Source of the DNA: Candidatus Eiseniibacteriota bacterium
Lineage (GTDB): Bacteria; Eisenbacteria; RBG-16-71-46; DASYSL01
DNA: 14,839 nucleotides
Reading direction: 5' to 3'
NCBI GenBank assembly: GCA_031431875.1
Contig: JANPEF010000102.1
Coordinates: forward strand, 1 to 14,839
Shown here: positions 1 through 14,490 of the stretch, one piece after another
Layout of the letters: each line of letters opens with the position of its first letter
Numbering within the stretch: position 1 is the stretch's first letter
Position numbers and translations under genes: made by a program
Notes under the pieces: model-generated
Seen by the model: the letters and a program-made list of their open reading frames with translations, nothing else
Told to the model about the DNA's origin: nothing
Database searches by the model: none

Positions 1-927
1 CACCAGCGTCCACGTCGCGTCCGGATCGAACGTCTCGATCGCCTCGACCGCCGAGTCGGTCTCCTCGCCCAGGTCCTTCTGGTAGACGGCACCGGCCTGG
101 CTGACGATGAACGTCTGCACGCCGCTCACGCCGTACTCCGCCGGCCACGCGATCAGCGCAAAGCCGCGCGCCAGGTAGCCGTTGACGAAGTAGTCGACGG
201 CACCGCCCTCCGCGTTGGCGCCCTGGGCATAGAGCTGGCGATAGCGATAGCCGTGATACGGCGTGGTCACGCCGGTGCTCGCCCGGTAACCCTCGGCGGC
301 GGCCGAGGCGACCCACGGTCCGATCGGGCTCTCGGGTTCACCATCCCCCGCCTTCCAGTAGAGGCCGTTGTGGCTGCCCTCGTCGCTCACGATCTTCTGC
401 GCGTAGATGCCGGCCGGCAGGCCGTCGTGACCGACCGATGCGTACTCCATCTCCGCGTCGACGTAGCCGCGGCTCGCCGCGATCGCACCCAGTTCGTTGC
501 CGCCGACACGGCGGTAGGCAATCTCGTCGACGCCGGCGGCGCCGTCGAGGACCCACTTGCCGTCGCGCTTCACGACCGGCACGGGGAGCGGCCAGTCGTC
601 GACGCCGACCTGCAGCGTCATGCGATCGTCCCCCTCAGGCACGAGCGCGTGCTTCGCCTCGTACCTGGCGAGGAACGACTTGCGGTCGTTCGCATCGGCC
701 ACCGGATCGCCGGAGTTGATCACGCCGTCCGAACCAGGACCGAACACCGCCTTCAACCGGGCCGGTTCGCCGCTCTGCACGGCGGCGACCATCGCCGTGA
801 CCGCGTCCTCTGCGGTGTCGAACGAGAGATGCTGCGTGGAGCCACCGCAACCGGCGAGCCCCAGGATCGCCACACCCACCATCGTCGCAAGGAGCGCGAG
901 GCTTCCAAGCATCGAATGCTTGTTCAT
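1..927 (-). CDS. DUF2950 family lipoprotein (3' end runs off the window)
   Basis: Not in the ORF track; translated by hand from ATG 927, open to position 1: MNKHSMLGSLALLATMVGVAILGLAGC (lipobox LAGC), then SGDPVADANDR, VGVDDWPLPVPVVK, EIAYRRVGGNELGAI, GLYW, PYHGYRYR, GFALIAWPAEYGVSGVQTFIVSQAGAVYQKDLG, FDPDATW. These motifs are typical of DUF2950. ATGA overlap with the upstream stop; GGAGGT RBS. Confidence 0.9.
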   Translation of the reverse strand, partial: MNKHSMLGSLALLATMVGVAILGLAGCGGSTQHLSFDTAEDAVTAMVAAVQSGEPARLKAVFGPGSDGVINSGDPVADANDRKSFLARYEAKHALVPEGDDRMTLQVGVDDWPLPVPVVKRDGKWVLDGAAGVDEIAYRRVGGNELGAIAASRGYVDAEMEYASVGHDGLPAGIYAQKIVSDEGSHNGLYWKAGDGEPESPIGPWVASAAAEGYRASTGVTTPYHGYRYRQLYAQGANAEGGAVDYFVNGYLARGFALIAWPAEYGVSGVQTFIVSQAGAVYQKDLGEETDSAVEAIETFDPDATWTLV

Positions 928-2738
928 CGCGACCTCCCGCCGGTGCGCGAGGCGCCACCGCCGCTGCTTCCACCCGAAGCCCGGGCTGCACCACCCGAGG
1001 ATGCCGTGCTGCTCCTTCCGCGTGCGCTCGCGGCGCTCGCCGAAGCACCACCGCCGCCACCACCGCTGAACGCGCTGCTGCCGCTGCCACCGCCTCCTCC
1101 GCCCGACGGGCGCCTCGGCGCGGAGCTCGCAGCGGGAGACGGACGCGATGCCGCTGCCGTGGGCGCCCTGGCCGCGGGCGTCGGACGCGATGCCACCGCG
1201 CTCGGCGCCTTTGCCGCCGCCGGTCGCGCTGCTGCCGCGCCACCACCGGCCTTTGTCGCGCCCGCGTAGCCGCGATCGGTCGCCGGCTTCGCCGCCGCGC
1301 CGGTCGTGGGCCGCGCCGGCAACTTGCTCGCCGAGCTCGCCGACTTCGCCTTCGCGGCGCCGTCTTTCGTCGCGCCGGCGTACGAGCCCTTCACCGCCGA
1401 ACCCGCCTGCGGCGCCTTGCCCTTTGCACCCGCTGCACCCGTGGTGGCGGTCGTCGCCCGCCCACCAGCGGCCGCGTCGCGCGCACCGCCGGCATCCGGA
1501 CGCTGCACCGAACGATCCCCAGCGGCCGCCGACTTCGCACCGTCGCGCGAGCCGGCACTCCGCTGCTCGTTGGCCTTGCGCGTGCGATCCTCGCCTTGCT
1601 TGTTGAGTGTTCCCAGGTCGGAGCGATTGGGCTTGGCCTGGGTGATGGGGCTCTTGACGCTGCGGCTGCTGCCGGCGTTGCGGTTGTTGTTGTTGTTGCC
1701 CCCGCGATCGCCATCACCGCGACCGCCGCCGCCGCCAAAATCATCGTTGTTCCAGTAGTTGTTGTTCCCGGTGTTGATGTTGATCGTGTTGTTGTTGAAG
1801 CTGTGGTTGTAGTTCGGCCCGGAGTTGTAGCCGTGCGAGGGGTAGTAACCTCCTCCATACGGGGGGCGATACATATACGGCGGGGGCGGATAGTACGGCC
1901 TGCCACCGTAGTACATGCCGCCATAGCCCCAGCTCGGCCCATAGTGATACCAGTCGTCGTCGTTGTCGAACGCATCGGCGACGAGGAGCCCCGCGCCGAA
2001 GGCGAGGAGCCCGGTCGCAATCACGGTGCCGGTGCTGGCGCCCTTCTCCTCGACGATCACCGTCGTCGTCGGCGCCGGAATCGTTGCCGGCGGCGGCGCG
2101 TACACCGCGACGGGGTCGTACTGCGGCACATAGATGACCTCGGGCTTGGGCGGCTCGATGGTGATCGCCGTCCTGCCCTCGGTGGTCACCGTCTCGACCT
2201 TGAGCTGCTCGCTCGTGGCGAGGTTGCCCACGTCCTGGGACTGCTTGCGCATGCGCTGCACCGCGTCGAGAACGGCCCCCTGGTCGGCGGTGAACGCCGT
2301 GCCGAGTTGAGTCGTCCAATCGATCTGCATGCACATCATGTCGACCGTCTCGGGAAACTGCAGCAGCGCCCGCATCGACGTGGTGAGGCCCAGCTTCTCG
2401 GCCTCCGCGTTGAGCTTGTCGGGTGCGAGGGTGTTGTTGGCGAGCAGCCAGTTGCCCGCATCGAGGACTTCCTGCGGATTGGTCGACGCGCTGAGGACAT
2501 GGCCGAGGATGACGTCGGGATAGAGCGCGATCGGGGCGACCAGGCCCTCGAGCGTCTCGGGCGACAGGTCGATCGGGGTCTCGCCGGCCGCCGTTGCTAC
2601 GGCGTTTTCGGCCGCGGGCGCCTGGCTGGCGGTATCCGGCGGGGCGAAGTCCTTCGATCCGCAGCCGCCGAGCAGCACAGGAAACAAGAAGAGGATTGCC
2701 ATCGTCCATGGACGTATGGCAAGCGAACGTGACTGCAT
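924..2738 (-). CDS. DUF3300 domain lipoprotein with a long low-complexity C-terminal tail
   Basis: Signal peptide ending LLGGC; LEGLVAPIALYPDVILGHVLSAST, WTTQLGTAF..DQGAVLDAVQRMR, IEPPKPEVIYVPQYDPVAVY match DUF3300; GGAGG RBS; adjacent to DUF2950, a commonly seen pairing. Confidence 0.9.
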   Translation of the reverse strand: MQSRSLAIRPWTMAILFLFPVLLGGCGSKDFAPPDTASQAPAAENAVATAAGETPIDLSPETLEGLVAPIALYPDVILGHVLSASTNPQEVLDAGNWLLANNTLAPDKLNAEAEKLGLTTSMRALLQFPETVDMMCMQIDWTTQLGTAFTADQGAVLDAVQRMRKQSQDVGNLATSEQLKVETVTTEGRTAITIEPPKPEVIYVPQYDPVAVYAPPPATIPAPTTTVIVEEKGASTGTVIATGLLAFGAGLLVADAFDNDDDWYHYGPSWGYGGMYYGGRPYYPPPPYMYRPPYGGGYYPSHGYNSGPNYNHSFNNNTININTGNNNYWNNDDFGGGGGRGDGDRGGNNNNNRNAGSSRSVKSPITQAKPNRSDLGTLNKQGEDRTRKANEQRSAGSRDGAKSAAAGDRSVQRPDAGGARDAAAGGRATTATTGAAGAKGKAPQAGSAVKGSYAGATKDGAAKAKSASSASKLPARPTTGAAAKPATDRGYAGATKAGGGAAAARPAAAKAPSAVASRPTPAARAPTAAASRPSPAASSAPRRPSGGGGGGSGSSAFSGGGGGGASASAASARGRSSTASSGGAARASGGSSGGGASRTGGRSR

Positions 2739-2975: not shown

Positions 2976-3803
2976 ATGCTCGAGTTGTTCTGGGATACAC
3001 GGGGCTACCTGTTCTGGTTGCTCGTCCTCTCAGCGTTCGTTCTCACGCTGGAGCGACTGTGGCCGTGGCGACGCACGCAACGTCTCCTCCGTCGGCAGTT
3101 TGGGCAGGATCTCTTCTGGCTCGTGTTCAACGGGCACTACGCCGGGATCCTCGTCGGGCACGCCGGTGCCGCGATCTTCGCGTGGGCGTGGCCCGCGATC
3201 GAACAGTTCCAGCATGTGCGGTTCCTGGTGGAGCAGCCACTCTGGCTGCAGTTCGCGGGCTTCTTCCTGCTCAAGGACTTCCTCGATTGGTGCGTCCACA
3301 ACCTGCTGCATCGTGTGCCCTGGCTCTGGGAGTTCCACAAGCTTCACCACTCCATCGAGGAACTGGACTGGATCGGAAACTTCCGTTTTCACTGGATGGA
3401 GATCGTGGTCTACCAGGGGCTCACCTACCTGCCGCTGGCCGTCCTCGGCGTCGATGGTCGCGTCATCCTCGCGATCGCCCTCGCCAACACGCTCATCGGC
3501 CACCTCAATCACAGCAATCTCGACATCACCTGGGGCCCGCTGCGCTACGTCCTCAACTCGTCCCGGATGCACGTCTGGCACCATGATTGGGACCTGCCCG
3601 CCGGTCGTCCCAGGGGGGTCAACTTCGGCATTGCCCTCAGCGTGTGGGACTGGCTTTTCGGCACCGCCTGGTGGCCGACGCCCCTCGAGGCGCCGACTCA
3701 GCAGCCGCGGCGACTCGGCTTTCCGGGACTGGAGAAGTTCCCGCGCGGGTTGCCCGAGCGTCTCCTGTATCCACTCTCACGCCTCTGGCGCGGGCGCGCC
3801 TAG
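2976..3803 (+). CDS. Sterol desaturase / fatty acid hydroxylase superfamily membrane protein
   Basis: Several hydrophobic helices and di-iron His boxes HNLLH, HKLHHS, HLNHSN, HVWHH, plus NFG..LSVWDWLFGT. Confidence 0.9.
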   Translation: MLELFWDTRGYLFWLLVLSAFVLTLERLWPWRRTQRLLRRQFGQDLFWLVFNGHYAGILVGHAGAAIFAWAWPAIEQFQHVRFLVEQPLWLQFAGFFLLKDFLDWCVHNLLHRVPWLWEFHKLHHSIEELDWIGNFRFHWMEIVVYQGLTYLPLAVLGVDGRVILAIALANTLIGHLNHSNLDITWGPLRYVLNSSRMHVWHHDWDLPAGRPRGVNFGIALSVWDWLFGTAWWPTPLEAPTQQPRRLGFPGLEKFPRGLPERLLYPLSRLWRGRA

Positions 3804-6034
3804 TCCGCGTCCCCCACCAGCACGAACGGCGCCCAGTACGCCGGGTGCGCGAAGGGGTGCGAGCCGTCGGTGGCGGTGAATGCGCGCACGTCTTCGCGGG
3901 CGAGGCGCAGCGCCTCGGGGAGCGGCATGCGCGCCGACCCGTCCTCGCCGTAGGCGTGGGCGCAGAAGCCGCGCAGCAGCGTGACGGTTGCACGCTCGTC
4001 GACCGCCCACAGGCTGGTCAGCACGCAGCTCGCGCCGGCGTGCAGGAATGCGTCCCCGATTCCCACGAACCCGCCGTAGGTGTATCCCCCCGCGCTCTGG
4101 CACGCGGCGAGGACGACGAGGTCTGCCGAAAGGCGCAGGGCTTCGATCTCGGCCACGCTGAGAAGGCCATCGTCGGGTGCATCGACGAACTCGCTGGGCT
4201 TGCCCGACGCGGCGTCGAGAGCGCGCATCCCGGTGCCCTTTCCATCAAGCACCAGCGCCGAACGCCCGGGCAGCCGCGGGTCCATCAGCGCGTGGCCGTC
4301 GAACTGGACGAGTTGCGGCGGGGCCTGCCGCTTGCCCGGCGTCTTGCCCGGCGCCCAGGTGGCGCGCAGCGAGCTCTCGGCGCCGGGGCCGGGCTCGAGG
4401 TGCGTCATCGATGCGAAGTCCGCGAGCACGCCGATCCGCCCGTTCGCGTCGTCGCCGCGCGCGAACAGGTCGCCGTCGATGAACAGTGCGCTCGGGGTCG
4501 GACTGCGCGGTGCAGCCGCAGCTCTGCGGGCCAGGTCGACGCGCGTGCTCGGCGAGTGGACGTAGCTCACGGCGTAGCGCGCCACGATCGGTGTGCCGCC
4601 TTCGTCGACCAGCGCGTCGATGGGCACTCCGGCGATTCCGGGCGAGAGGAGGACGACGAGGTGACGCACGCCGGCGAGCTCCGGCTCGGCGCGGGCGAAG
4701 CGCTCGCGCCACGCGGCCTGCGCGGCTACTTCGAGTTCAGGCGTCGGCGCGATGCGCGCTGGCCACGCGACCGCCGTGGCGAGCCGAGTCCGGAAGCGAA
4801 GGAAGTCGCCGGGGTCGTTCTTCTGCAGCGGCTCGAGGCGGATCCAGCGCACCGGTCCCCGATCGCGCAGCACGTAGATCCACGACTCGATCGGCGTCTC
4901 CTCGACCACGCTCACGTCGAGCCAGCCCACGATCGCCGTTTGCGGATTGAGCGTCCGCTGCACCGTGGCGCGCGAGTGCGGCGGCACGGTGATCGAGCGC
5001 GGCCCGTCGCTCGCGCCCGCGGCTCCCGCCAGAGCCTCGTTGAACAGCAGCGACTGCGCGGCATCGAGCACGTTCCACGCCTCGTCCGGGCGGCCCGCGG
5101 CGAGATGCACGGCGGCGAGCACGTCGGCGCCCTTGGGGCGGTAGCGCAGGCGATCGCTGCCGGCCTTGGCACCCAGGCGCAACCGGGCGTACGTGTCGAG
5201 CGATTGCTCGAGGGAGCGCCGGGCGTTCTCGAGGTCGCCGGTGCGGAAGCCGACCCAGCCCGTGATGCTCGCGGCCAGCGCCACGGCCGGGTGATCCGGT
5301 CCCAGGTTCGCAGTCAGGACCGGGCGCGCCGCGTCGAGCTCGCTGCGTGCCTCGGCGATGCGATCGAGCTGTGCCAGCACCAGCGCATAGCCGACGCGCA
5401 TGCGTGCCAGCTGCAGGCTCGAGTCCCCCTCGACCTCGCGCGTGATGGCGATCGCCTGCGCCTGGTAAAGCGCGGTGCTGTCGCGTCGCGCGGGGTTGAT
5501 GCGCATGACCGCGCCGATGCCGGCCAGCGCGGCGGCCACCTCGGAGCGGCCTTCGGGGCCGACCGTGCGCGCCACCTCGGCCGCCGCCTCGTGACTGTGT
5601 TGAGCCTCGACGTAGCGGCCCTGGTTCTTCGCCCCGGTGCCCCAGCTGTTTCGCGCCTCCGCCTCGAGGAGCCGGTGCGCCGGGCCGGCTTGCGCGGCGA
5701 GCTCGATGGCACGCGCCAGGTGCGGCATCGCGCCGTCGAGATCGCCGAGGTCCATCTCGACCCTGCCGAGGCGAAGGAACGACTCGGCCTGCTCGGCGGC
5801 GGAGCACTTCTCACTCTCGGCCCGAGCCGCCTGCTCGCGCAGGACGGTGAGCGCGCCGGCCGAGTTGCCCAGGCGCCCCAGCGAGTCGGTGGTCGCGAAG
5901 GCGATGCGCCCCGCGTCCGAGATCGTGTCGCCATCGGGGGTGGAGGTGCGGTCGGTAGTCCGGCAGCCGAGGACGAGCGCAGCGGCGAGCACGACCCACG
6001 CCGCGCGGCGCGGAGTCGAGCGCGCGCGGGTCAC
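3800..6034 (-). CDS. TPR + CHAT (caspase-like, clan CD) protease, probable lipoprotein
   Basis: Start reassigned to GTG 6034 (GTGA overlap with upstream stop; 744 aa). Basic N-terminus, hydrophobic stretch and VLG-C24; TPR-like helical repeats (LGPDHPAV, GDLENARRSLEQSL); CHAT motifs FDGHA (His 4292-4294), DGLLSVAEI, ADLVVLAACQS (Cys 4100-4102), AFLHAGASCVLTSLWAVDE, HPAYWAPFVLVG. Confidence 0.9.
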   Translation of the reverse strand: MTRARSTPRRAAWVVLAAALVLGCRTTDRTSTPDGDTISDAGRIAFATTDSLGRLGNSAGALTVLREQAARAESEKCSAAEQAESFLRLGRVEMDLGDLDGAMPHLARAIELAAQAGPAHRLLEAEARNSWGTGAKNQGRYVEAQHSHEAAAEVARTVGPEGRSEVAAALAGIGAVMRINPARRDSTALYQAQAIAITREVEGDSSLQLARMRVGYALVLAQLDRIAEARSELDAARPVLTANLGPDHPAVALAASITGWVGFRTGDLENARRSLEQSLDTYARLRLGAKAGSDRLRYRPKGADVLAAVHLAAGRPDEAWNVLDAAQSLLFNEALAGAAGASDGPRSITVPPHSRATVQRTLNPQTAIVGWLDVSVVEETPIESWIYVLRDRGPVRWIRLEPLQKNDPGDFLRFRTRLATAVAWPARIAPTPELEVAAQAAWRERFARAEPELAGVRHLVVLLSPGIAGVPIDALVDEGGTPIVARYAVSYVHSPSTRVDLARRAAAAPRSPTPSALFIDGDLFARGDDANGRIGVLADFASMTHLEPGPGAESSLRATWAPGKTPGKRQAPPQLVQFDGHALMDPRLPGRSALVLDGKGTGMRALDAASGKPSEFVDAPDDGLLSVAEIEALRLSADLVVLAACQSAGGYTYGGFVGIGDAFLHAGASCVLTSLWAVDERATVTLLRGFCAHAYGEDGSARMPLPEALRLAREDVRAFTATDGSHPFAHPAYWAPFVLVGDAD

Positions 6035-6816
6035 TGCGAGCCCTGCGCCGGCGGGTCGGTGCTGGCTTCGAGGAGCGCCTGCGCTTTCCCCTGGAGGGGA
6101 CCGGGTCGACCGGCCAGCGCACGCACGACCGAGTCGGCGCGTCCCGCATCCAGCGCCTCGGGCGAAGTGCGCAGGCGGGCCCATTCGCGCCAGTCGGCGT
6201 AGGGCTCGGGCAGCGCCTTCGTCGCGATCGGCGTGAGCACGCTGCGGGCCTCGTCGTTACGCCCGAGCTCGAGCAGTGCGCTGGCGAGGTAGAGCCGGCG
6301 CAATGGCTCGAGTCGCGCGTCCTCGAACGGCGTGTCGAGCAGGCGGGCGGCCGCGGACCAGTTGCCGCTGCCGTAGCGCGCGATGGCGTCCTCGAGCCGC
6401 GGCAGGTCGGCCGTCTGTTCGCGTGCGCGCAGGTGGACGATCTCGAGCGGCGCGGGCAGTCCCAGGAGCGCGGGTTTCGCGCGCGGCGCGGGCTCGCGCA
6501 GCAGGACGATGCTGGAGACGATCGCCACCGCCGCCGCCGTGGCGAGCGCAATGCCGAGCAGGCCGCGCCGGCGGGCCCAGGCGGGCCGGACGCCGCCGGA
6601 CTGCACCGGAATCGCAGGCGCCGCGAGCACGCTTTCCGCCCGCGCCCGGAACCGCTCGCGATCGGCCGCCGCGATGCGAAGCTGCCGGTCGCATTGCGGA
6701 CAGGTATGCGCGTGCTCGACGGCGTTCGCGACCTCGTGGTCCGCGCGCAGCCCGTGCACGACTTCCAGCAGGAAGTCCTCGTCGTAGTGCCCGTTCGGGG
6801 CGCCCGGTCCGTTCAC
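6031..6816 (-). CDS. Putative zinc-binding (ZAS / zf-HC2-like) transmembrane anti-sigma factor with a C-terminal TPR-like domain
   Basis: Start reassigned to GTG 6816 (GTGA overlap with the sigma stop; 261 aa). N-terminal His plus HAHTCPQC (HxxxCxxC, 6691-6714); RRR followed by one TM helix (GLLGIALATAAAVAIVSSIVLL); TPR-like LYLASALLELGRNDEARSVL; directly downstream of an ECF sigma. Confidence 0.8.
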   Translation of the reverse strand: MNGPGAPNGHYDEDFLLEVVHGLRADHEVANAVEHAHTCPQCDRQLRIAAADRERFRARAESVLAAPAIPVQSGGVRPAWARRRGLLGIALATAAAVAIVSSIVLLREPAPRAKPALLGLPAPLEIVHLRAREQTADLPRLEDAIARYGSGNWSAAARLLDTPFEDARLEPLRRLYLASALLELGRNDEARSVLTPIATKALPEPYADWREWARLRTSPEALDAGRADSVVRALAGRPGPLQGKAQALLEASTDPPAQGSQ

Positions 6817-7592
6817 TTCGCATCCTCGTTCACGTGCCCGTTCCGCACGAAGCGATCCCACAGTCGCGCCATGCCCGCGACCGCCAGGTGCGACGCGTCG
6901 ATCCCGGCCTCCTGCAGGCAGGCGCGCAACGTCGTTCGCGCCCGCCCGACGATGACGTCGACGTTCGCCGGGTTGAGCCGGATCTCGGGATGGGCCGCGA
7001 TGTCGCGAGAACTCATTTCAAAGAAGGTGCGGAAGATCCAGATCCGTCGCGCCCGAGGGGCGAGGGTTTCAATGCACTGGTCGAGGGCGGCGGTCACCTC
7101 GGCGAACTCCACGCGATTCGAGGGGGAGATTGCGTCATTGGAACGCCCGCCCCCGAGTTCGGAAGAGTCGATGGGCCCCTCCGCCGCATGACCGTTGCCA
7201 CGGCGAACGCGCTCGCGGCGGAGCTGGTCGATGATCGCGTTGCGGCTGGTCTGGGCGACGAAGCCGGACACCTCGCGCGTGTCGTCGCGGCGCAGCACCA
7301 GCGTGCCCGCCTCGATCCGGTGCAGCAGGTCGAGAGCCTTGGTGGCGACGAGATCCTCGAGATCCTCGCGGGTCAGCGGTCCGAGAGTGCGTGCCTGGGA
7401 GCGGGCGAAGCGGGCGAGCGCCGAGGACAGCAGGACCCACAACTCGGCCCGGGCGCTGGCGCGCGTGGAATCCGCGAGCGGAGTGGCCAGCTGCTCGGCG
7501 AGCAGGGCCAAGCGTTCCGCCCAGGGCCTGGGTCCATTCGATGTCGAGTCGGGGGGGATTACTCCGACCGGGTCCGTCCCGTCTGGGGTCAT
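6813..7592 (-). CDS. ECF (sigma-70 group 4) RNA polymerase sigma factor
   Basis: Region 2-like EDLEDLV...FVAQTSRNAIIDQLRR; region 4-like LDQCIETLAPRARRIWIFRTFFEMSSRDIA...VDVIVGRARTTLRACL; no region 3. Exact start uncertain. Confidence 0.88.
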   Translation of the reverse strand: MTPDGTDPVGVIPPDSTSNGPRPWAERLALLAEQLATPLADSTRASARAELWVLLSSALARFARSQARTLGPLTREDLEDLVATKALDLLHRIEAGTLVLRRDDTREVSGFVAQTSRNAIIDQLRRERVRRGNGHAAEGPIDSSELGGGRSNDAISPSNRVEFAEVTAALDQCIETLAPRARRIWIFRTFFEMSSRDIAAHPEIRLNPANVDVIVGRARTTLRACLQEAGIDASHLAVAGMARLWDRFVRNGHVNEDAK

Positions 7593-8038
7593 GGATGTTA
7601 CTCGAGGTGAGAATCGTCATGCGAGCCCCGGTCGAAACAAGTATCAGAGGTGGATGTTCAGAAGGCAAGACATCCTGCCCGGACACGTAGGTACGTGCGT
7701 CGTGAAGCCATGGGCGACAGGCGGCGTCGGTCACGAGTTTCCCCCCGTACTCCTCGGTGCCTTTCCCGAGGCACTTTGGCCTCTGGCTGCCTGTCGCACC
7801 CCGTGGGGCGATGGTCTTCCCCGTCTCGGTGGTGGATACGCGCGAGGGGGGAGGATCTAACGGGAGAAGTGTCCAAAGCGGAGAGATGACCTGATGGGGA
7901 CACGATGGCTTCGCGGTATCTGCACCGATCGTTGGATCAGAGGGGTTTGTGCGAAGCAGCAGTTGGAACAGGAACTGTTCCTACGCCCGGACCCCGATCC
8001 GGGTCACCTAGGTCCACTCACCTTGATGAGGCTTTCAC

Positions 8039-8461
8039 ATGCGCCGACTGCTTGCCAGTAGCCTGCTACTGCTCACGATGCTCGTTCTTGCTCCGGTCGC
8101 GGAAGTCGCCATGGCGACCCCGTATGAGATCGTGACCTTCAACATGTCCGGACGAACCGTGAAGCAGAATGGAACACCCAAGCCGAACACGCTGGTCTCG
8201 CTGAGGCTAATTCATGCCACGACCCCGCCAAACATCAACTGGACCAGCGTCAGCGTGACATCGGACGCCAATGGGAACTTTTCCAAGTCTGTGACCACCA
8301 ACGGTTACTATGCGGTGGCGAGTATCAATGCGCAGGCCTACCAGGGAATCGCCAAGACTCTGACAGTTTCGTATCCAGTGAGTGGGTTGTATAACTTCGG
8401 CGACCTGATCAGCGGGAACTGTAGGAGCTGTCCACTGCCGGAGGATGGGAGCAATCCCTAA
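8039..8461 (+). CDS. Small secreted hypothetical protein, probable beta-sandwich (carboxypeptidase-regulatory / prealbumin-like), C-terminal CxxC
   Basis: Sec signal peptide MRRLLASSLLLLTMLVLAPVAEVAMA; pattern SGRTV..NGTPKPNTLVSL...TSDANGNF; CRSC near the C-terminus; GAGG upstream; hairpins follow the stop. Confidence 0.75.
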   Translation: MRRLLASSLLLLTMLVLAPVAEVAMATPYEIVTFNMSGRTVKQNGTPKPNTLVSLRLIHATTPPNINWTSVSVTSDANGNFSKSVTTNGYYAVASINAQAYQGIAKTLTVSYPVSGLYNFGDLISGNCRSCPLPEDGSNP

Positions 8462-8568: not shown

Positions 8569-10815
8569 CTACCGCGTCACGACCATCCGCCGTGTCTCGG
8601 CCGCCGCCCCCGCGCTGCCCGGCCCGCTCTCACCCCGCGCCGTCAGCCGCGCAAAGTACAGCCCGGCCGCAACGCGCCGCCCGCTCGTGTCGAGCCCGTT
8701 CCACTCGGCCGTGTGGGCGCCGGCGTTGAGCTCGGTCGTGCCGCCATCGAGCAGCGTGCGCACCAAGCGCCCCGTCACGTCGTAGATCGCGAGCGACACA
8801 GCCCCGCGGCGTGCCAGGTCGAACGTGATCGTCGTGCGCGACTGGAACGGGTTCGGCGCGTTGGCGCGCAGGCGCAGTGTCCAGCCCGCGGCAATAGCGG
8901 CGTCGCCCACGCCGACCACCGACGTCGAGTCGTAGATGAACGTCAGGTACTCGGGGTGGTCGATGAACGGGTTGCGGTTGCCCTGGATCACGTAGACCGC
9001 GCCGTTGCGCATGCGCTCCTTCCAGCTCACCGGATCGCCGTCGGACCACGCGCGGTACTGGGTCACGGCCCAGGGGTACATCTCGGCGCCGTCGGTCGAC
9101 GGGCTGCCCGGCCACGCGCCGTCCTGCCCGAAGTAGCGCGTCGACATGTAGAACTGGCTGCGCATGAGGTCGCCCTTGTAGGCGTCGATCGGCTCGAACA
9201 CGGTGCCGCTGTAGCCTGCGCTCACGCTCGGGCCAAGCTTGCTGCCGTTCTGCGAGGTGGTCGTGGGCGCGCCGACCGTGCCGTATGGATAGTTCGAGCG
9301 GTAGCCGTTCACCTTGGCGTCGGTGGGGTACAGGTTCCACAGATCGGTGTACATCGGCGAGGCGTCGCTGAACCACGAGGCGGGGAACGAGTGCTCGCGG
9401 TTGTAGCCCAGGCCCTCGGTCGCGCCCTGGCCGGTCTGGCCGAAGCTGTACTCGTAGGGCGGCGTGCCGCCCGGAATGTCCGAGTACATGTCCCACACCT
9501 TGCCGTTGGGCTTCACGTCGGTGGTCTGGAACGAGGTGAGAGCGCCGCTGTAGCTGCCCACGTTGTGGTTCCTGATCCGGTTGTGGAGTGCCACGCGCAG
9601 CGCCGAGCCGCTGAGCCCGGTCATCGCGTCGTAGTAGCCGGACGGAATGGTCACGTCGACGTAGTTGAAGGCGCGTGTCGCTCCGGCGTTGAAGTTGGCC
9701 TCGAGATCGGCCACGCCGCTCACGCTCAGCGTGCGCGTGCCCGCGGTCACGCCGCGGACCGTGATCAGGACCTGCGAGGTGTGCGCCAGGTCGTGCTCGG
9801 CGGCGATGGCGAAGAGCGCGCCGATCGAATAGTTGCCGGGCGACTCGGCGCTCGTCTCCTCGACGGGCTCGCTGAAGAAGACGAGGAACGTCGAGTCGCT
9901 CATCTCGCCCACGGCGAGGACCGACGCCGGCACGCCGGTGCCGCCGCCCGGGATCGTGTAATTGAGGATCGACGACTGCGTGTTCGCCACCGCGCCCTCG
10001 GCGAGCAGGCGGTAGTAGATCGTGATGCCGCTCGACTGCCCCGGGATCGCCGCGCTGGTCCGGTACGTGTCGCCCGCGAGCAGCGGCATGCCGATGACGT
10101 TGGCCAGGTTGCCTGCCGAGGTGCCCCACGACAGCGTGACCGCCTGGATCGCGCCGCTCGTGTCGGTCACGGTGGCCTGCACGTCGACGGGCACGCCCGC
10201 GGTCGGGCTCGCCGGATCGGTGACGATATTCGAGATCAGCGGGCCGCCGGCGGGCGGCGCTGAGCCGTTGTGCGAGCCGGGCGTCGCATCGGTCGCCAGC
10301 GTCACCGCGGTTGCCGTCCACTGGCCCGCATCGAACACGGGCGTGGGGTCGGTGATGTTCGCGTTTCGCACCAGCGTCAGGTTCTCGAACAGCACGCCCG
10401 GAGCGAGCACGTAGTCGAGCACCACGTTGCTGCCGTTGATCAGCTTGGCGCCGTCGCCGACCTTCCCGTTCCAATTGAAGTAGTTGGTCAGCCACGCCGC
10501 GCTGCCGTAGTGGAGCGGGAACACGGTCACCGGCGCGGTGCTGCCCGCCACCTTCGCCTCGCCGGGTCCGATCGTGCCCGACAGCGTCCACGTGTTGGCG
10601 TCGACGTTGTTGGCCACCGCGACGATCTTCCATCCGGTCAGGTCCACGGTGCCCGGGCCCGAGTTGTAGATCTCGATGAAGCGATCGGTCGTGTAGTTGT
10701 TCAGCGGATCGCACAACTCGGAGAGAAATACGCCAGCGGCGGCCGGTGCGGCGGCAATCGTCGCAAGGGCGGCGACCACGAAGGCGGCCAGGGCGAGCAC
10801 GGGGGTCCTGCGCAT
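8569..10815 (-). CDS. Secreted endonuclease I family nuclease with lamin-tail domain, Ig-like spacers and C-terminal FlgD-Ig domain
   Basis: Start reassigned to ATG 10815 (signal peptide MRRTPVLALAAF...AAA, AAAGGTG RBS; 748 aa). LTD-like VFLSELCD..DRFIEIYNSGPGTVDLTGW; EndA/Bsn-type YNREHSFPASW, DLWNLYPTDAKVNGYRSNYPYG, KGDLMRSQFYMSTRY, QGNRNPFIDHPE; CTD NAPNPF..TTITFDL..IYDVTGRLVRTL..WNG..GLYFARL. Confidence 0.9.
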   Translation of the reverse strand: MRRTPVLALAAFVVAALATIAAAPAAAGVFLSELCDPLNNYTTDRFIEIYNSGPGTVDLTGWKIVAVANNVDANTWTLSGTIGPGEAKVAGSTAPVTVFPLHYGSAAWLTNYFNWNGKVGDGAKLINGSNVVLDYVLAPGVLFENLTLVRNANITDPTPVFDAGQWTATAVTLATDATPGSHNGSAPPAGGPLISNIVTDPASPTAGVPVDVQATVTDTSGAIQAVTLSWGTSAGNLANVIGMPLLAGDTYRTSAAIPGQSSGITIYYRLLAEGAVANTQSSILNYTIPGGGTGVPASVLAVGEMSDSTFLVFFSEPVEETSAESPGNYSIGALFAIAAEHDLAHTSQVLITVRGVTAGTRTLSVSGVADLEANFNAGATRAFNYVDVTIPSGYYDAMTGLSGSALRVALHNRIRNHNVGSYSGALTSFQTTDVKPNGKVWDMYSDIPGGTPPYEYSFGQTGQGATEGLGYNREHSFPASWFSDASPMYTDLWNLYPTDAKVNGYRSNYPYGTVGAPTTTSQNGSKLGPSVSAGYSGTVFEPIDAYKGDLMRSQFYMSTRYFGQDGAWPGSPSTDGAEMYPWAVTQYRAWSDGDPVSWKERMRNGAVYVIQGNRNPFIDHPEYLTFIYDSTSVVGVGDAAIAAGWTLRLRANAPNPFQSRTTITFDLARRGAVSLAIYDVTGRLVRTLLDGGTTELNAGAHTAEWNGLDTSGRRVAAGLYFARLTARGESGPGSAGAAAETRRMVVTR

Positions 10816-11042: not shown

Positions 11043-11409
11043 GTGCCGAGAGTCGTCTTCTTTCGGGAAGCCTAATGGGGAAGTCCCGTTCGTTCGCTGG
11101 CTTGAGGGGCTGTCGCAGAAGGGTAGGGACCATGTCTCCGTGAACATCGCCCGTCTCCGAACACATGGACACCTCCTCCGTCGTCCGGAGTCGGACTACC
11201 TGGTCGATGGAATCCACGAGTTGCGCTTCCGATGCCAGAGGCTCAACTACCGGGTCCTCTACTTCTTCCATGGCCGGGAACTTGTGGTCCTGTCGCACGG
11301 CATCTTCAAGCAGGAGGCAAGGGTCCCGAAGTGCGACATCGAGGTTGCCCGCAGGAGGCGGCTGCAGTTCCAAGCCGATTCGAGAATGCACACGCACGGG
11401 GAGGACTGA
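11043..11409 (+). pseudogene. RelE/ParE superfamily (HigB / Gp49-like) toxin with a +1 frame disruption near codon 8
   Basis: GGAAGG RBS then GTG 11043 gives MPRVVFFREA-stop (TAA 11073-11075). The +1 frame continues KPNGEVPFVRWLEGL..LRRPESDYLVDGIHELRFR..NYRVLYFFHG..VVLSHGIFKQ, a typical HigB/Gp49-like body ending at TGA 11409. Confidence 0.75.
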
Positions 11410-11411
11410 TC

Positions 11412-11747
11412 ATGCCGAAGGAACGCAGGCCCACGACAGACGCCATCGAAATCATCTATCGGCGCTTTTACGAGGGTCACCCCGATCGCATCGCAGGCCT
11501 CGAACTCGCCCGCCAGGAAGCCGCCATCGCCCGCAAGATCCACGCCCTGCGCACGCGTGCCGGCCTCACCCAGCAGCAACTGGCAAAGCTCGTCGGAACG
11601 AGCACCTCGGTCATCTCGCGGCTCGAGGATGCCGACTACGACGGGCATTCGCTCAAGACCCTTCACCGGATCGCCACCGCGCTCGACTGCGTGGTCGAGG
11701 TGCGGTTCGTCCGGCGGCGCAAGGGCGGTGGGCGGGCGAGCGCTTGA
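11412..11747 (+). CDS. XRE-family HTH antitoxin (HigA-like)
   Basis: ATG 11412 after GGAGGA; IARKIHALRTRAGLTQQQLAKLVGTSTSVISRLE is an HTH_3-type motif, then DYDGHSLKTLHRIATAL; toxin-first gene order as in higBA. Confidence 0.88.
   Translation: MPKERRPTTDAIEIIYRRFYEGHPDRIAGLELARQEAAIARKIHALRTRAGLTQQQLAKLVGTSTSVISRLEDADYDGHSLKTLHRIATALDCVVEVRFVRRRKGGGRASA

Positions 11748-11802: not shown

Positions 11803-14488
<2,686 letters not shown>

Positions 14489-14490
<2 letters not shown>

Follow-up and report, generated by a model that had tools for sequence, protein, structure and literature searches.

The three-gene operon described here lies in a 14,839-nucleotide stretch of DNA from Candidatus Eiseniibacteriota bacterium (assembly GCA_031431875.1, contig JANPEF010000102.1), referred to below as the window; it makes up one entire contig, and the genome to which it belongs is 3.75 Mb in size and 98% complete. 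The operon encodes a sigma factor of the extracytoplasmic function (ECF) type, a putative membrane-bound anti-sigma factor and a TPR-CHAT protein with a predicted export signal. Judging from the anatomy of the three proteins and their linkage in related genomes, the triad may be a two-protein version of the DdvS/DdvA switch of Myxococcus xanthus, a reading to which we assign a probability of roughly 55%. The three genes are as follows.

6813 to 7592, minus strand: ECF sigma factor, 259 amino acids, assigned by TIGR02937, from a distinct subfamily of the phylum

6031 to 6816, minus strand: putative anti-sigma factor, 261 amino acids, with an HHCC zinc domain, a single transmembrane (TM) helix, a linker and a TPR region, as judged by conservation and a structure model

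3800 to 6034, minus strand: predicted exported TPR-CHAT protease, 744 amino acids, with a lipoprotein-type signal, assigned by PF12770 and a structure model

The window sequence itself reveals the coupling of these minus-strand open reading frames (ORFs) by two GTGA stop/start overlaps, 6816-6813 and 6034-6031, as stated in an earlier reading of the same DNA (the original prediction). The first gene was correctly named there as an ECF sigma factor: its product scored 50.4 bits against TIGR02937 in a profile search, above the cut-off of 42.9. Matches to the Pfam profiles for sigma regions 2 and 4 (Sigma70 r2/r4) stayed below their cut-offs. TIGR02937 is the superfamily model, and by it the protein fits an ECF sigma factor, a type with sigma2 and sigma4 only. 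The subfamily to which it belongs gave 67 matches in 45 of the 206 genomes of the phylum. At one locus, L091, a sigma factor of the subfamily occurs with neither anti-sigma nor CHAT gene, has a strong promoter motif upstream, is followed by a small secreted ORF, and could be an orphan.

Conservation of the triad was assessed in 60 stretches representing 61 of the 66 non-self sigma matches, five contig-end fragments being excluded. Where 1 kb or more of downstream sequence was available (47 stretches), the anti-sigma gene follows the sigma gene in 46; where each side extended 5 kb or more (31 stretches), 29 have a CHAT domain no farther than 6 kb away. The neighbourhood singled out in the original prediction is kept. 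When truncated stretches with a visible CHAT were included, the count became 39/41, comprising 33 loci in the order of the window, two with CHAT upstream, two divergent and two convergent. The control drew on 21 well-assembled genomes, from whose 150 listed zf-HC2 places 60 were taken and 59 could be used; CHAT occurred within about 6 kb of these loci anchored on a zinc-binding anti-sigma (ZAS) domain in 6/59. A quick tree of 111 CHAT domains placed all 41 sigma-locus CHATs and the window copy in one clade (SH-aLRT 98), together with ten other entries. Anchoring on CHAT instead, an ECF gene was present within 4 kb in 24 of 60 stretches (60 of the 150 listed). The occurrence of the sigma subfamily in 45 of 206 genomes, with its conserved anti-sigma and CHAT neighbours, argues that the triad is not a product of chance. 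A related-locus search with the sigma factor alone returned one locus, so the range beyond the phylum is read only from Atlas look-alikes, which come from Acidobacteriota, Gemmatimonadota, Bacteroidota and Myxococcota.

In the middle gene, three elements were located.

6691 to 6789, minus strand: stretch of zinc ligands from H10 to C42, read from the sequence

6505 to 6561, minus strand: predicted TM helix, residues about 86 to 104 by hydropathy scan and 87 to 106 in the model

6427 to 6429, minus strand: Arg130, predicted P1 residue in the extracytoplasmic linker, from conservation

The HxxxCxxC motif, the one hydrophobic helix and the TPR fold ascribed to this protein in the original prediction were all recovered, from sequence, hydropathy and model, respectively. 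Its zinc ligands, arranged as H10...H35xxxC39xxC42, are 96–99% kept in 150 relatives. The zf-HC2 profile gave no match in the window protein itself and matched 47 of 150 family members, and all TPR matches of the window protein in the profile search were sub-threshold. In the structure model, the N-terminus forms three helices, and residues 129–260 adopt a TPR fold. Profile comparison returned weak matches to the DdvA N-terminus (8rlz, E value 0.089), 3hug_B and RsiW, while a structure search with the model gave generic TPR proteins only, DdvA not being among the matches listed. Taken with the gene order, the ZAS motifs suggest that the membrane protein probably holds the ECF sigma factor inactive through its cytoplasmic zinc domain. 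The family is stand-alone, with 429 representatives at an E value of at most 1e-30, the best 150 of which are all 229–324 amino acids long; no longer, fused form was found, which is weak evidence. A 1004-amino-acid ORF at locus L078 was considered as a fusion and rejected, as it shows an apparent frameshift, retains an internal signal peptide and comes from a 56% complete genome.

All but five of the 150 family representatives (145) have Arg at position 130, which lies 20–28 residues past the TM helix, and the linker columns around it (122–140) are at most 45% conserved. The Arg is accompanied by hydrophobic residues at P2 and P4 and a small or acidic residue at P1'. This pattern suggests that Arg130 is probably the P1 residue of a cleavage site.

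In the third protein, four features were located.

5963 to 6034, minus strand: signal peptide ending in the lipobox VLG-C24, read from the sequence

4418 to 4420, minus strand: Asp539, candidate S1-pocket acid, Asp or Glu in 27 of 27 family members, modelled with low confidence

4292 to 4294, minus strand: catalytic His581, invariant in 27 of 27

4100 to 4102, minus strand: catalytic Cys645, invariant in 27 of 27

The CHAT domain scored 134.7 bits against PF12770 (cut-off 24) and was accompanied by TPR_12; of the domain assignments made in the original prediction, this one therefore passed its profile threshold, but the Sigma70 region and zf-HC2 profiles, as described above, did not. The model (pLDDT 82.9) matches the folds of Csx29, separase and DdvA residues 385–991, the top match being Csx29 (8eey). 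Against DdvA it gave Z scores of 20.1–20.3 and root-mean-square deviations of 5.4–6.2, corresponding to the TPR-CHAT part of DdvA (368–991). A phmmer search of the PDB with the CHAT protein and the CHAT domain of one relative returned no matches. Clan CD enzymes that cut after Arg carry an S1 acid on helix alpha1, Asp-365 (D365) in MALT1 and Asp-163 (D163) in RgpB (PMC4357240), and separases likewise cleave after Arg (PMC11506125). By its position only, Asp539 is a candidate equivalent of these acids. The lipobox noted in the original prediction is visible in the sequence, and among 28 downstream CHATs of relatives, 14 carry a lipobox pattern and 24 a hydrophobic N-terminus, the other four resembling mis-called starts. 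An extracytoplasmic location of the protease is supported by the lipobox and this hydropathy pattern only.

The source genome contains eight CHAT matches, some in settings of their own. On contig C60 (8385-17026), a tandem pair of exported TPR-CHAT genes is convergent with an ECF sigma gene and an anti-sigma gene bearing two HxxxCxxC motifs; at the start of the contig is a third TPR-CHAT gene, and upstream lies a gene for a large secreted protein. Contig C149 (13735-21072) encodes, in order, a secreted protein, a TPR-CHAT protein, an ECF sigma factor, a zinc-less TM protein whose linker contains PLLR-G, and an OmpA-like protein, a second module type within this genome. On contig C61, which has no CHAT gene, a ZAS-TM anti-sigma gene downstream of 51098-51574 (minus strand) encodes a QVLR-G linker like those of CHAT-linked anti-sigmas, and its product is possibly served in trans. 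Two exported TPR-CHATs that nearly duplicate each other, and whose C-termini carry a membrane anchor, are encoded at C6:359-3553 and C119:20789-24634; in the C119 copy Gln replaces the catalytic His (HFAGQS versus HFAGHS). At C49:55974-59047, a CHAT gene is followed by an exported gene that is subtilase-like by its motifs, a context resembling that of the ECF54 group.

To evaluate possible targets of the sigma factor, the DNA upstream of the sigma genes was compared. Enrichment of k-mers was weak, TTGTTAG alone exceeding the maximum of the shuffled null (z 5.6 versus 4.9). A promoter matrix built from six sites facing divergent secreted genes in other genomes, with the window excluded from training, was scored on 579 called genes. 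Among non-seed genes, a score of at least 11.5 was reached by 5 of the 21 that encode a secretion-type C-terminal tail, compared with 14 of 550 others (p 3e-4). The refined matrix, from which the genome ranks below are taken, included 17 sites, one of them a wrong pick. The following sites and target were predicted in the window.

7833 to 7864, minus strand: predicted promoter of the sigma operon, CGTTAGAT...CGTATC, best minus-strand site of the window, genome rank 6

7928 to 7959, plus strand: predicted promoter of the divergent ORF, CGTTGGAT...CGAAGC, best plus-strand site of the window, genome rank 24

8039 to 8461, plus strand: secreted protein, 140 amino acids, predicted target beyond the span of the original prediction, weakly CarboxypepD_reg-like (PF13620, E value 0.0047, below the cut-off)

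Both best sites (7864 on the minus and 7928 on the plus strand) sit inside a 446-base intergenic gap. The promoter-like motif YGTTAGAW, which has five occurrences genome-wide, one of them in the window, was found 5' of neighbouring secreted-protein genes, of the sigma gene and of the divergent ORF 8039-8461. The motif itself is established statistically, and we infer its use by this sigma factor. The divergent ORF has Atlas look-alikes at 0.92. Its absence from the same-genus locus L094 makes the target look exchangeable. Among 34 flanking proteins, selected mostly because they are large or look secreted, 11 carry FlgD_ig domains, and C25, S8, M43, laminin-G and propeller domains occur as well. 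A defence role was considered and is unsupported, given that no cas1 or RAMP match was detected in the genome and that PADLOC, run on 73 flanking genes, matched five of them: a subtilase, two protein kinases and two genes that match mad3 in part.

Other features were seen near the sigma genes. The window gene at 8569-10815 (minus strand) encodes a secreted endonuclease I that also carries lamin-tail and FlgD_ig domains; it lacks a strong promoter motif 5', and in L094 the endonuclease I gene sits immediately upstream of the sigma gene. In one clade, at L055, L068, L082, L084, L089 and L090, a hairpin-rich non-coding stretch is conserved upstream of the sigma gene, after a gene for a secreted protein of 155–190 amino acids. 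Many sigma genes also display a TAnnnT hexamer a few bases 5' of the start codon.

The original prediction took CRISPR-associated systems as its precedent and missed a nearer one, DdvS/DdvA of M. xanthus (PMC11506125). DdvA consists of a ZAS domain (1–70), a TM helix (71–92), a linker (95–143), a TPR scaffold up to residue 367 and TPR-CHAT at 368–991, and its structures are deposited as PDB 8ROT, 8RW5 and 8RLZ (PMC11506125). Its authors propose that the periplasmic CHAT acts as a site-1 protease cutting the linker in trans before RseP, and DdvA truncated in the linker was degraded in an RseP-dependent manner (PMC11506125). The window shares with DdvS/DdvA the ECF sigma factor, the zinc anti-sigma domain, the single TM helix, the flexible linker, the TPR region and the TPR-CHAT His-Cys dyad. 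The layout of its anti-sigma is that of the first part of DdvA, but the ectodomain TPR has no specific match to the DdvA scaffold. Anti-sigma and CHAT are two polypeptides in the window, the latter with its own export signal, whereas DdvA is a single chain; the zinc ligands are HHCC rather than the CHCC of DdvA. Only fused forms, from Myxococcota and one Comamonas, appear in the DdvA survey (PMC11506125). Unlike DdvA, the window locus does not adjoin a CRISPR/CBASS island, and the neighbours in relatives are secreted enzymes or adhesins; control of a defence island holds for DdvA itself and only for a subset of its paralogues (PMC11506125). Since the anti-sigma family is stand-alone, its zinc-domain matches are weak and its TPR region has no specific match to the DdvA scaffold, the module appears to work like DdvA but is not DdvA. 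The source genome also encodes an RseP homologue (264.6 bits; cut-off 147.55).

From the anatomy, linkage, residue conservation and motif enrichment, all of which are observed, we infer each physical step of a chain that we consider slightly better than an even bet as a whole. The cytoplasmic zinc domain of the membrane protein would keep the ECF sigma factor inactive, while the exported TPR-CHAT protein would rest outside the cytoplasmic membrane, probably docked on the TPR region of the anti-sigma. An extracytoplasmic cue would activate CHAT, which would cleave after Arg130 in the linker of the anti-sigma, some 25 residues away from the membrane. By analogy with DdvA, loss of the TPR region would leave the stub open first to RseP and afterwards to proteases of the cytoplasm. 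The freed sigma factor would transcribe from YGTTAGAW -35-like promoters its own operon and the neighbouring secreted-protein gene, which in relatives often encodes a FlgD-Ig-tailed enzyme or adhesin. A site-1 role of an exported CHAT protease in freeing the sigma factor was the central idea of the original prediction; it gains comparative support from the linkage, the export signals, the near-invariant linker Arg, the RseP gene and the genome in which no cas1 or RAMP gene was found. It is qualified by the divergence of the window copy described below, and the same logic had already been proposed by the DdvA authors. The central idea of the DdvA report, that a caspase-like domain beyond the membrane sets off sigma release, is still a proposal because protease and substrate form one chain there and no trigger is known. 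In the window the two are separate, and Cys645, Arg130 and the predicted promoter are named, so each step can be mutated alone.

Several observations weigh against cleavage by this protease, beginning with its active site. The His/Cys pair named in the original prediction is present, but the description "intact" requires qualification. The Gly after the catalytic His, a clan CD trait (PMC4357240), is absent in 27/27 family members, the window copy having Ala after His581. Residues 523–541 of the window copy are divergent and of low confidence, with no modelled helix at 533–545; the family GDP and L...E motifs are altered, the latter falling in relatives in the region of these residues, and H577 is changed to Gln. 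The window protease is among the most divergent of its clade, on a stem of 1.33 substitutions per column common only to it and the same-genus copy. In favour of the proposed reading, purifying selection persists: measured against the same-genus copy, the ratio of nonsynonymous to synonymous substitution rates is 0.23 over the full protein and 0.26 within the CHAT domain, with the 0.39 at residues 510–600 counting against it. The DdvA mutants H862A and C907A still repress ddvS, neither trigger nor autoproteolysis having been seen in the work as reported there, and Craspases cut after Met or Leu, not Arg (PMC11506125). Loci L046 and L207 have the anti-sigma gene and no CHAT within about 6 kb, and the linkage counts overstate independence because the genomes are kin. 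Pre-set tests of the Arg motif in unrelated CHAT-linked anti-sigmas were marginal (p 0.03; 14/22 versus 13/34, p 0.056), and the stronger cross-family results, such as hydrophobic-R-G in 10/22 versus 1/33, were post hoc; these counts exclude loci without a TM call and two mis-picked ORFs.

Part of this evidence would also fit a TPR-CHAT protein that serves as a co-sensor or shield and does not cut. Arg130 would then be a pseudo-substrate anchor, a role that suits an invariant Arg as well as cutting does, and another protease or a conformational change would free the sigma factor when the two proteins part; RseB-like behaviour offers a parallel. The missing helix at 533–545, the lack of a His-Gly motif and the long branch of the window copy agree with such a protein, as do the DdvA dyad mutants without phenotype and the incomplete active site of DdvA (PMC11506125). 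A pure scaffold would, in contrast, have no need of His and Cys residues that are invariant in 27/27 relatives at 25–30% identity, and we regard this explanation as unlikely. We think it rather improbable that the regulon has CHAT as an output and not as its trigger; on that view CHAT would be an exported protease of the Arg type, acting on secreted proteins to mature or degrade them, and its co-transcription would reflect nothing more than control by the sigma factor. The CHAT gene comes last in an operon whose promoter is predicted to be autoregulated, and flanking genes often encode secreted enzymes (including C25, S8 and M43 peptidases), which would be in keeping with this, but the near-invariant linker Arg, the persistence of CHAT next to the pair in four orientations despite varying flanking genes, and the single-chain form in DdvA would be left unexplained. 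Less probable again is a constitutive cut at Arg130, after which fragments and protease would stay joined and block RseP until a signal separates them, as in self-cleaving anti-sigmas: a protease that is a protein of its own and has a fixed substrate could cut as soon as it arrives, and pre-cleaved anti-sigmas are described in the DdvA discussion, but full-length DdvA is stable without sign of constitutive cleavage, and TPR-CHAT proteases are allosterically gated (PMC11506125).

A triggered cut by an exported CHAT, the reading preferred here, has counterparts in other known systems. The type III-E Craspase (Csx29, Csx30 and CASP-sigma; PMC10028731) likewise pairs a TPR-CHAT protease with cleavage of a sigma-binding protein, as proposed for the window; its TPR-CHAT is cytoplasmic and RNA-gated via Cas7-11, whereas that of the window is predicted to be exported. 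The CRISPR-independence claimed in the original prediction holds, in that neither cas1 nor a RAMP gene was matched in the 98% complete source genome. In ECF54 of Actinobacteria (PMC7826278), as in the window, an ECF gene lies near genes for CHAT-TPR and a carboxypeptidase-regulatory-like domain, and the predicted -35 element GTATCAG loosely resembles YGTTAG/YGTCAG. ECF54 is described in that source without an anti-sigma, with the carboxypeptidase-regulatory domain at +1 and with subtilases (PMC7826278). In the window, by contrast, the +1 gene encodes the ZAS-TM-TPR protein, CHAT is predicted to be exported and the host phylum is Candidatus Eisenbacteria. In regulated intramembrane proteolysis of the DegS/RseA/RseP type, DegS is the site-1 protease. 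The window proposal has in common with this scheme (PMC11506125) an extracytoplasmic site-1 cut followed by a site-2 cut by RseP, but would employ at site 1 a cysteine protease of clan CD that serves a single anti-sigma. The original prediction left open whether the arrangement was new. The concept is already in print as a hypothesis, since the DdvA authors propose CHAT as a site-1 protease, while searches of a literature coverage that mostly leaves out subscription journals listed no publication in which an exported CHAT and a ZAS-TM-TPR anti-sigma are separate proteins.

The remainder of the window contains a DUF3300-DUF2950 pair (1-2738, minus strand) and a fatty-acid hydroxylase family gene (2976-3803, plus strand) in a convergent 4-base overlap with the CHAT stop. 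On the far side, a Gp49-like gene, of the RelE/HigB type, and an HTH gene (11140-11747, plus strand) form a probable toxin-antitoxin pair inserted 5' of a Ser/Thr kinase-WD40 gene (11803-14490).

If the triad acts as proposed, a considerable fraction of the many TPR-CHAT proteins of the phylum would acquire a role, as represented by the 24 of 60 CHAT loci with a nearby ECF gene. A broader claim is tentative, and we rate it somewhat below even: exported separase-like CHATs may be a widespread, undescribed class of dedicated site-1 proteases, each cleaving its own membrane anti-sigma past an Arg of the linker. Several unrelated anti-sigma families would share this code (hydrophobic-x-hydrophobic-R followed by a small residue), and the modules would turn on the genes of one or a few secreted enzymes or adhesins next to them. 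Were this true, DdvA would be a fused special case of the class and defence only one of its outputs.

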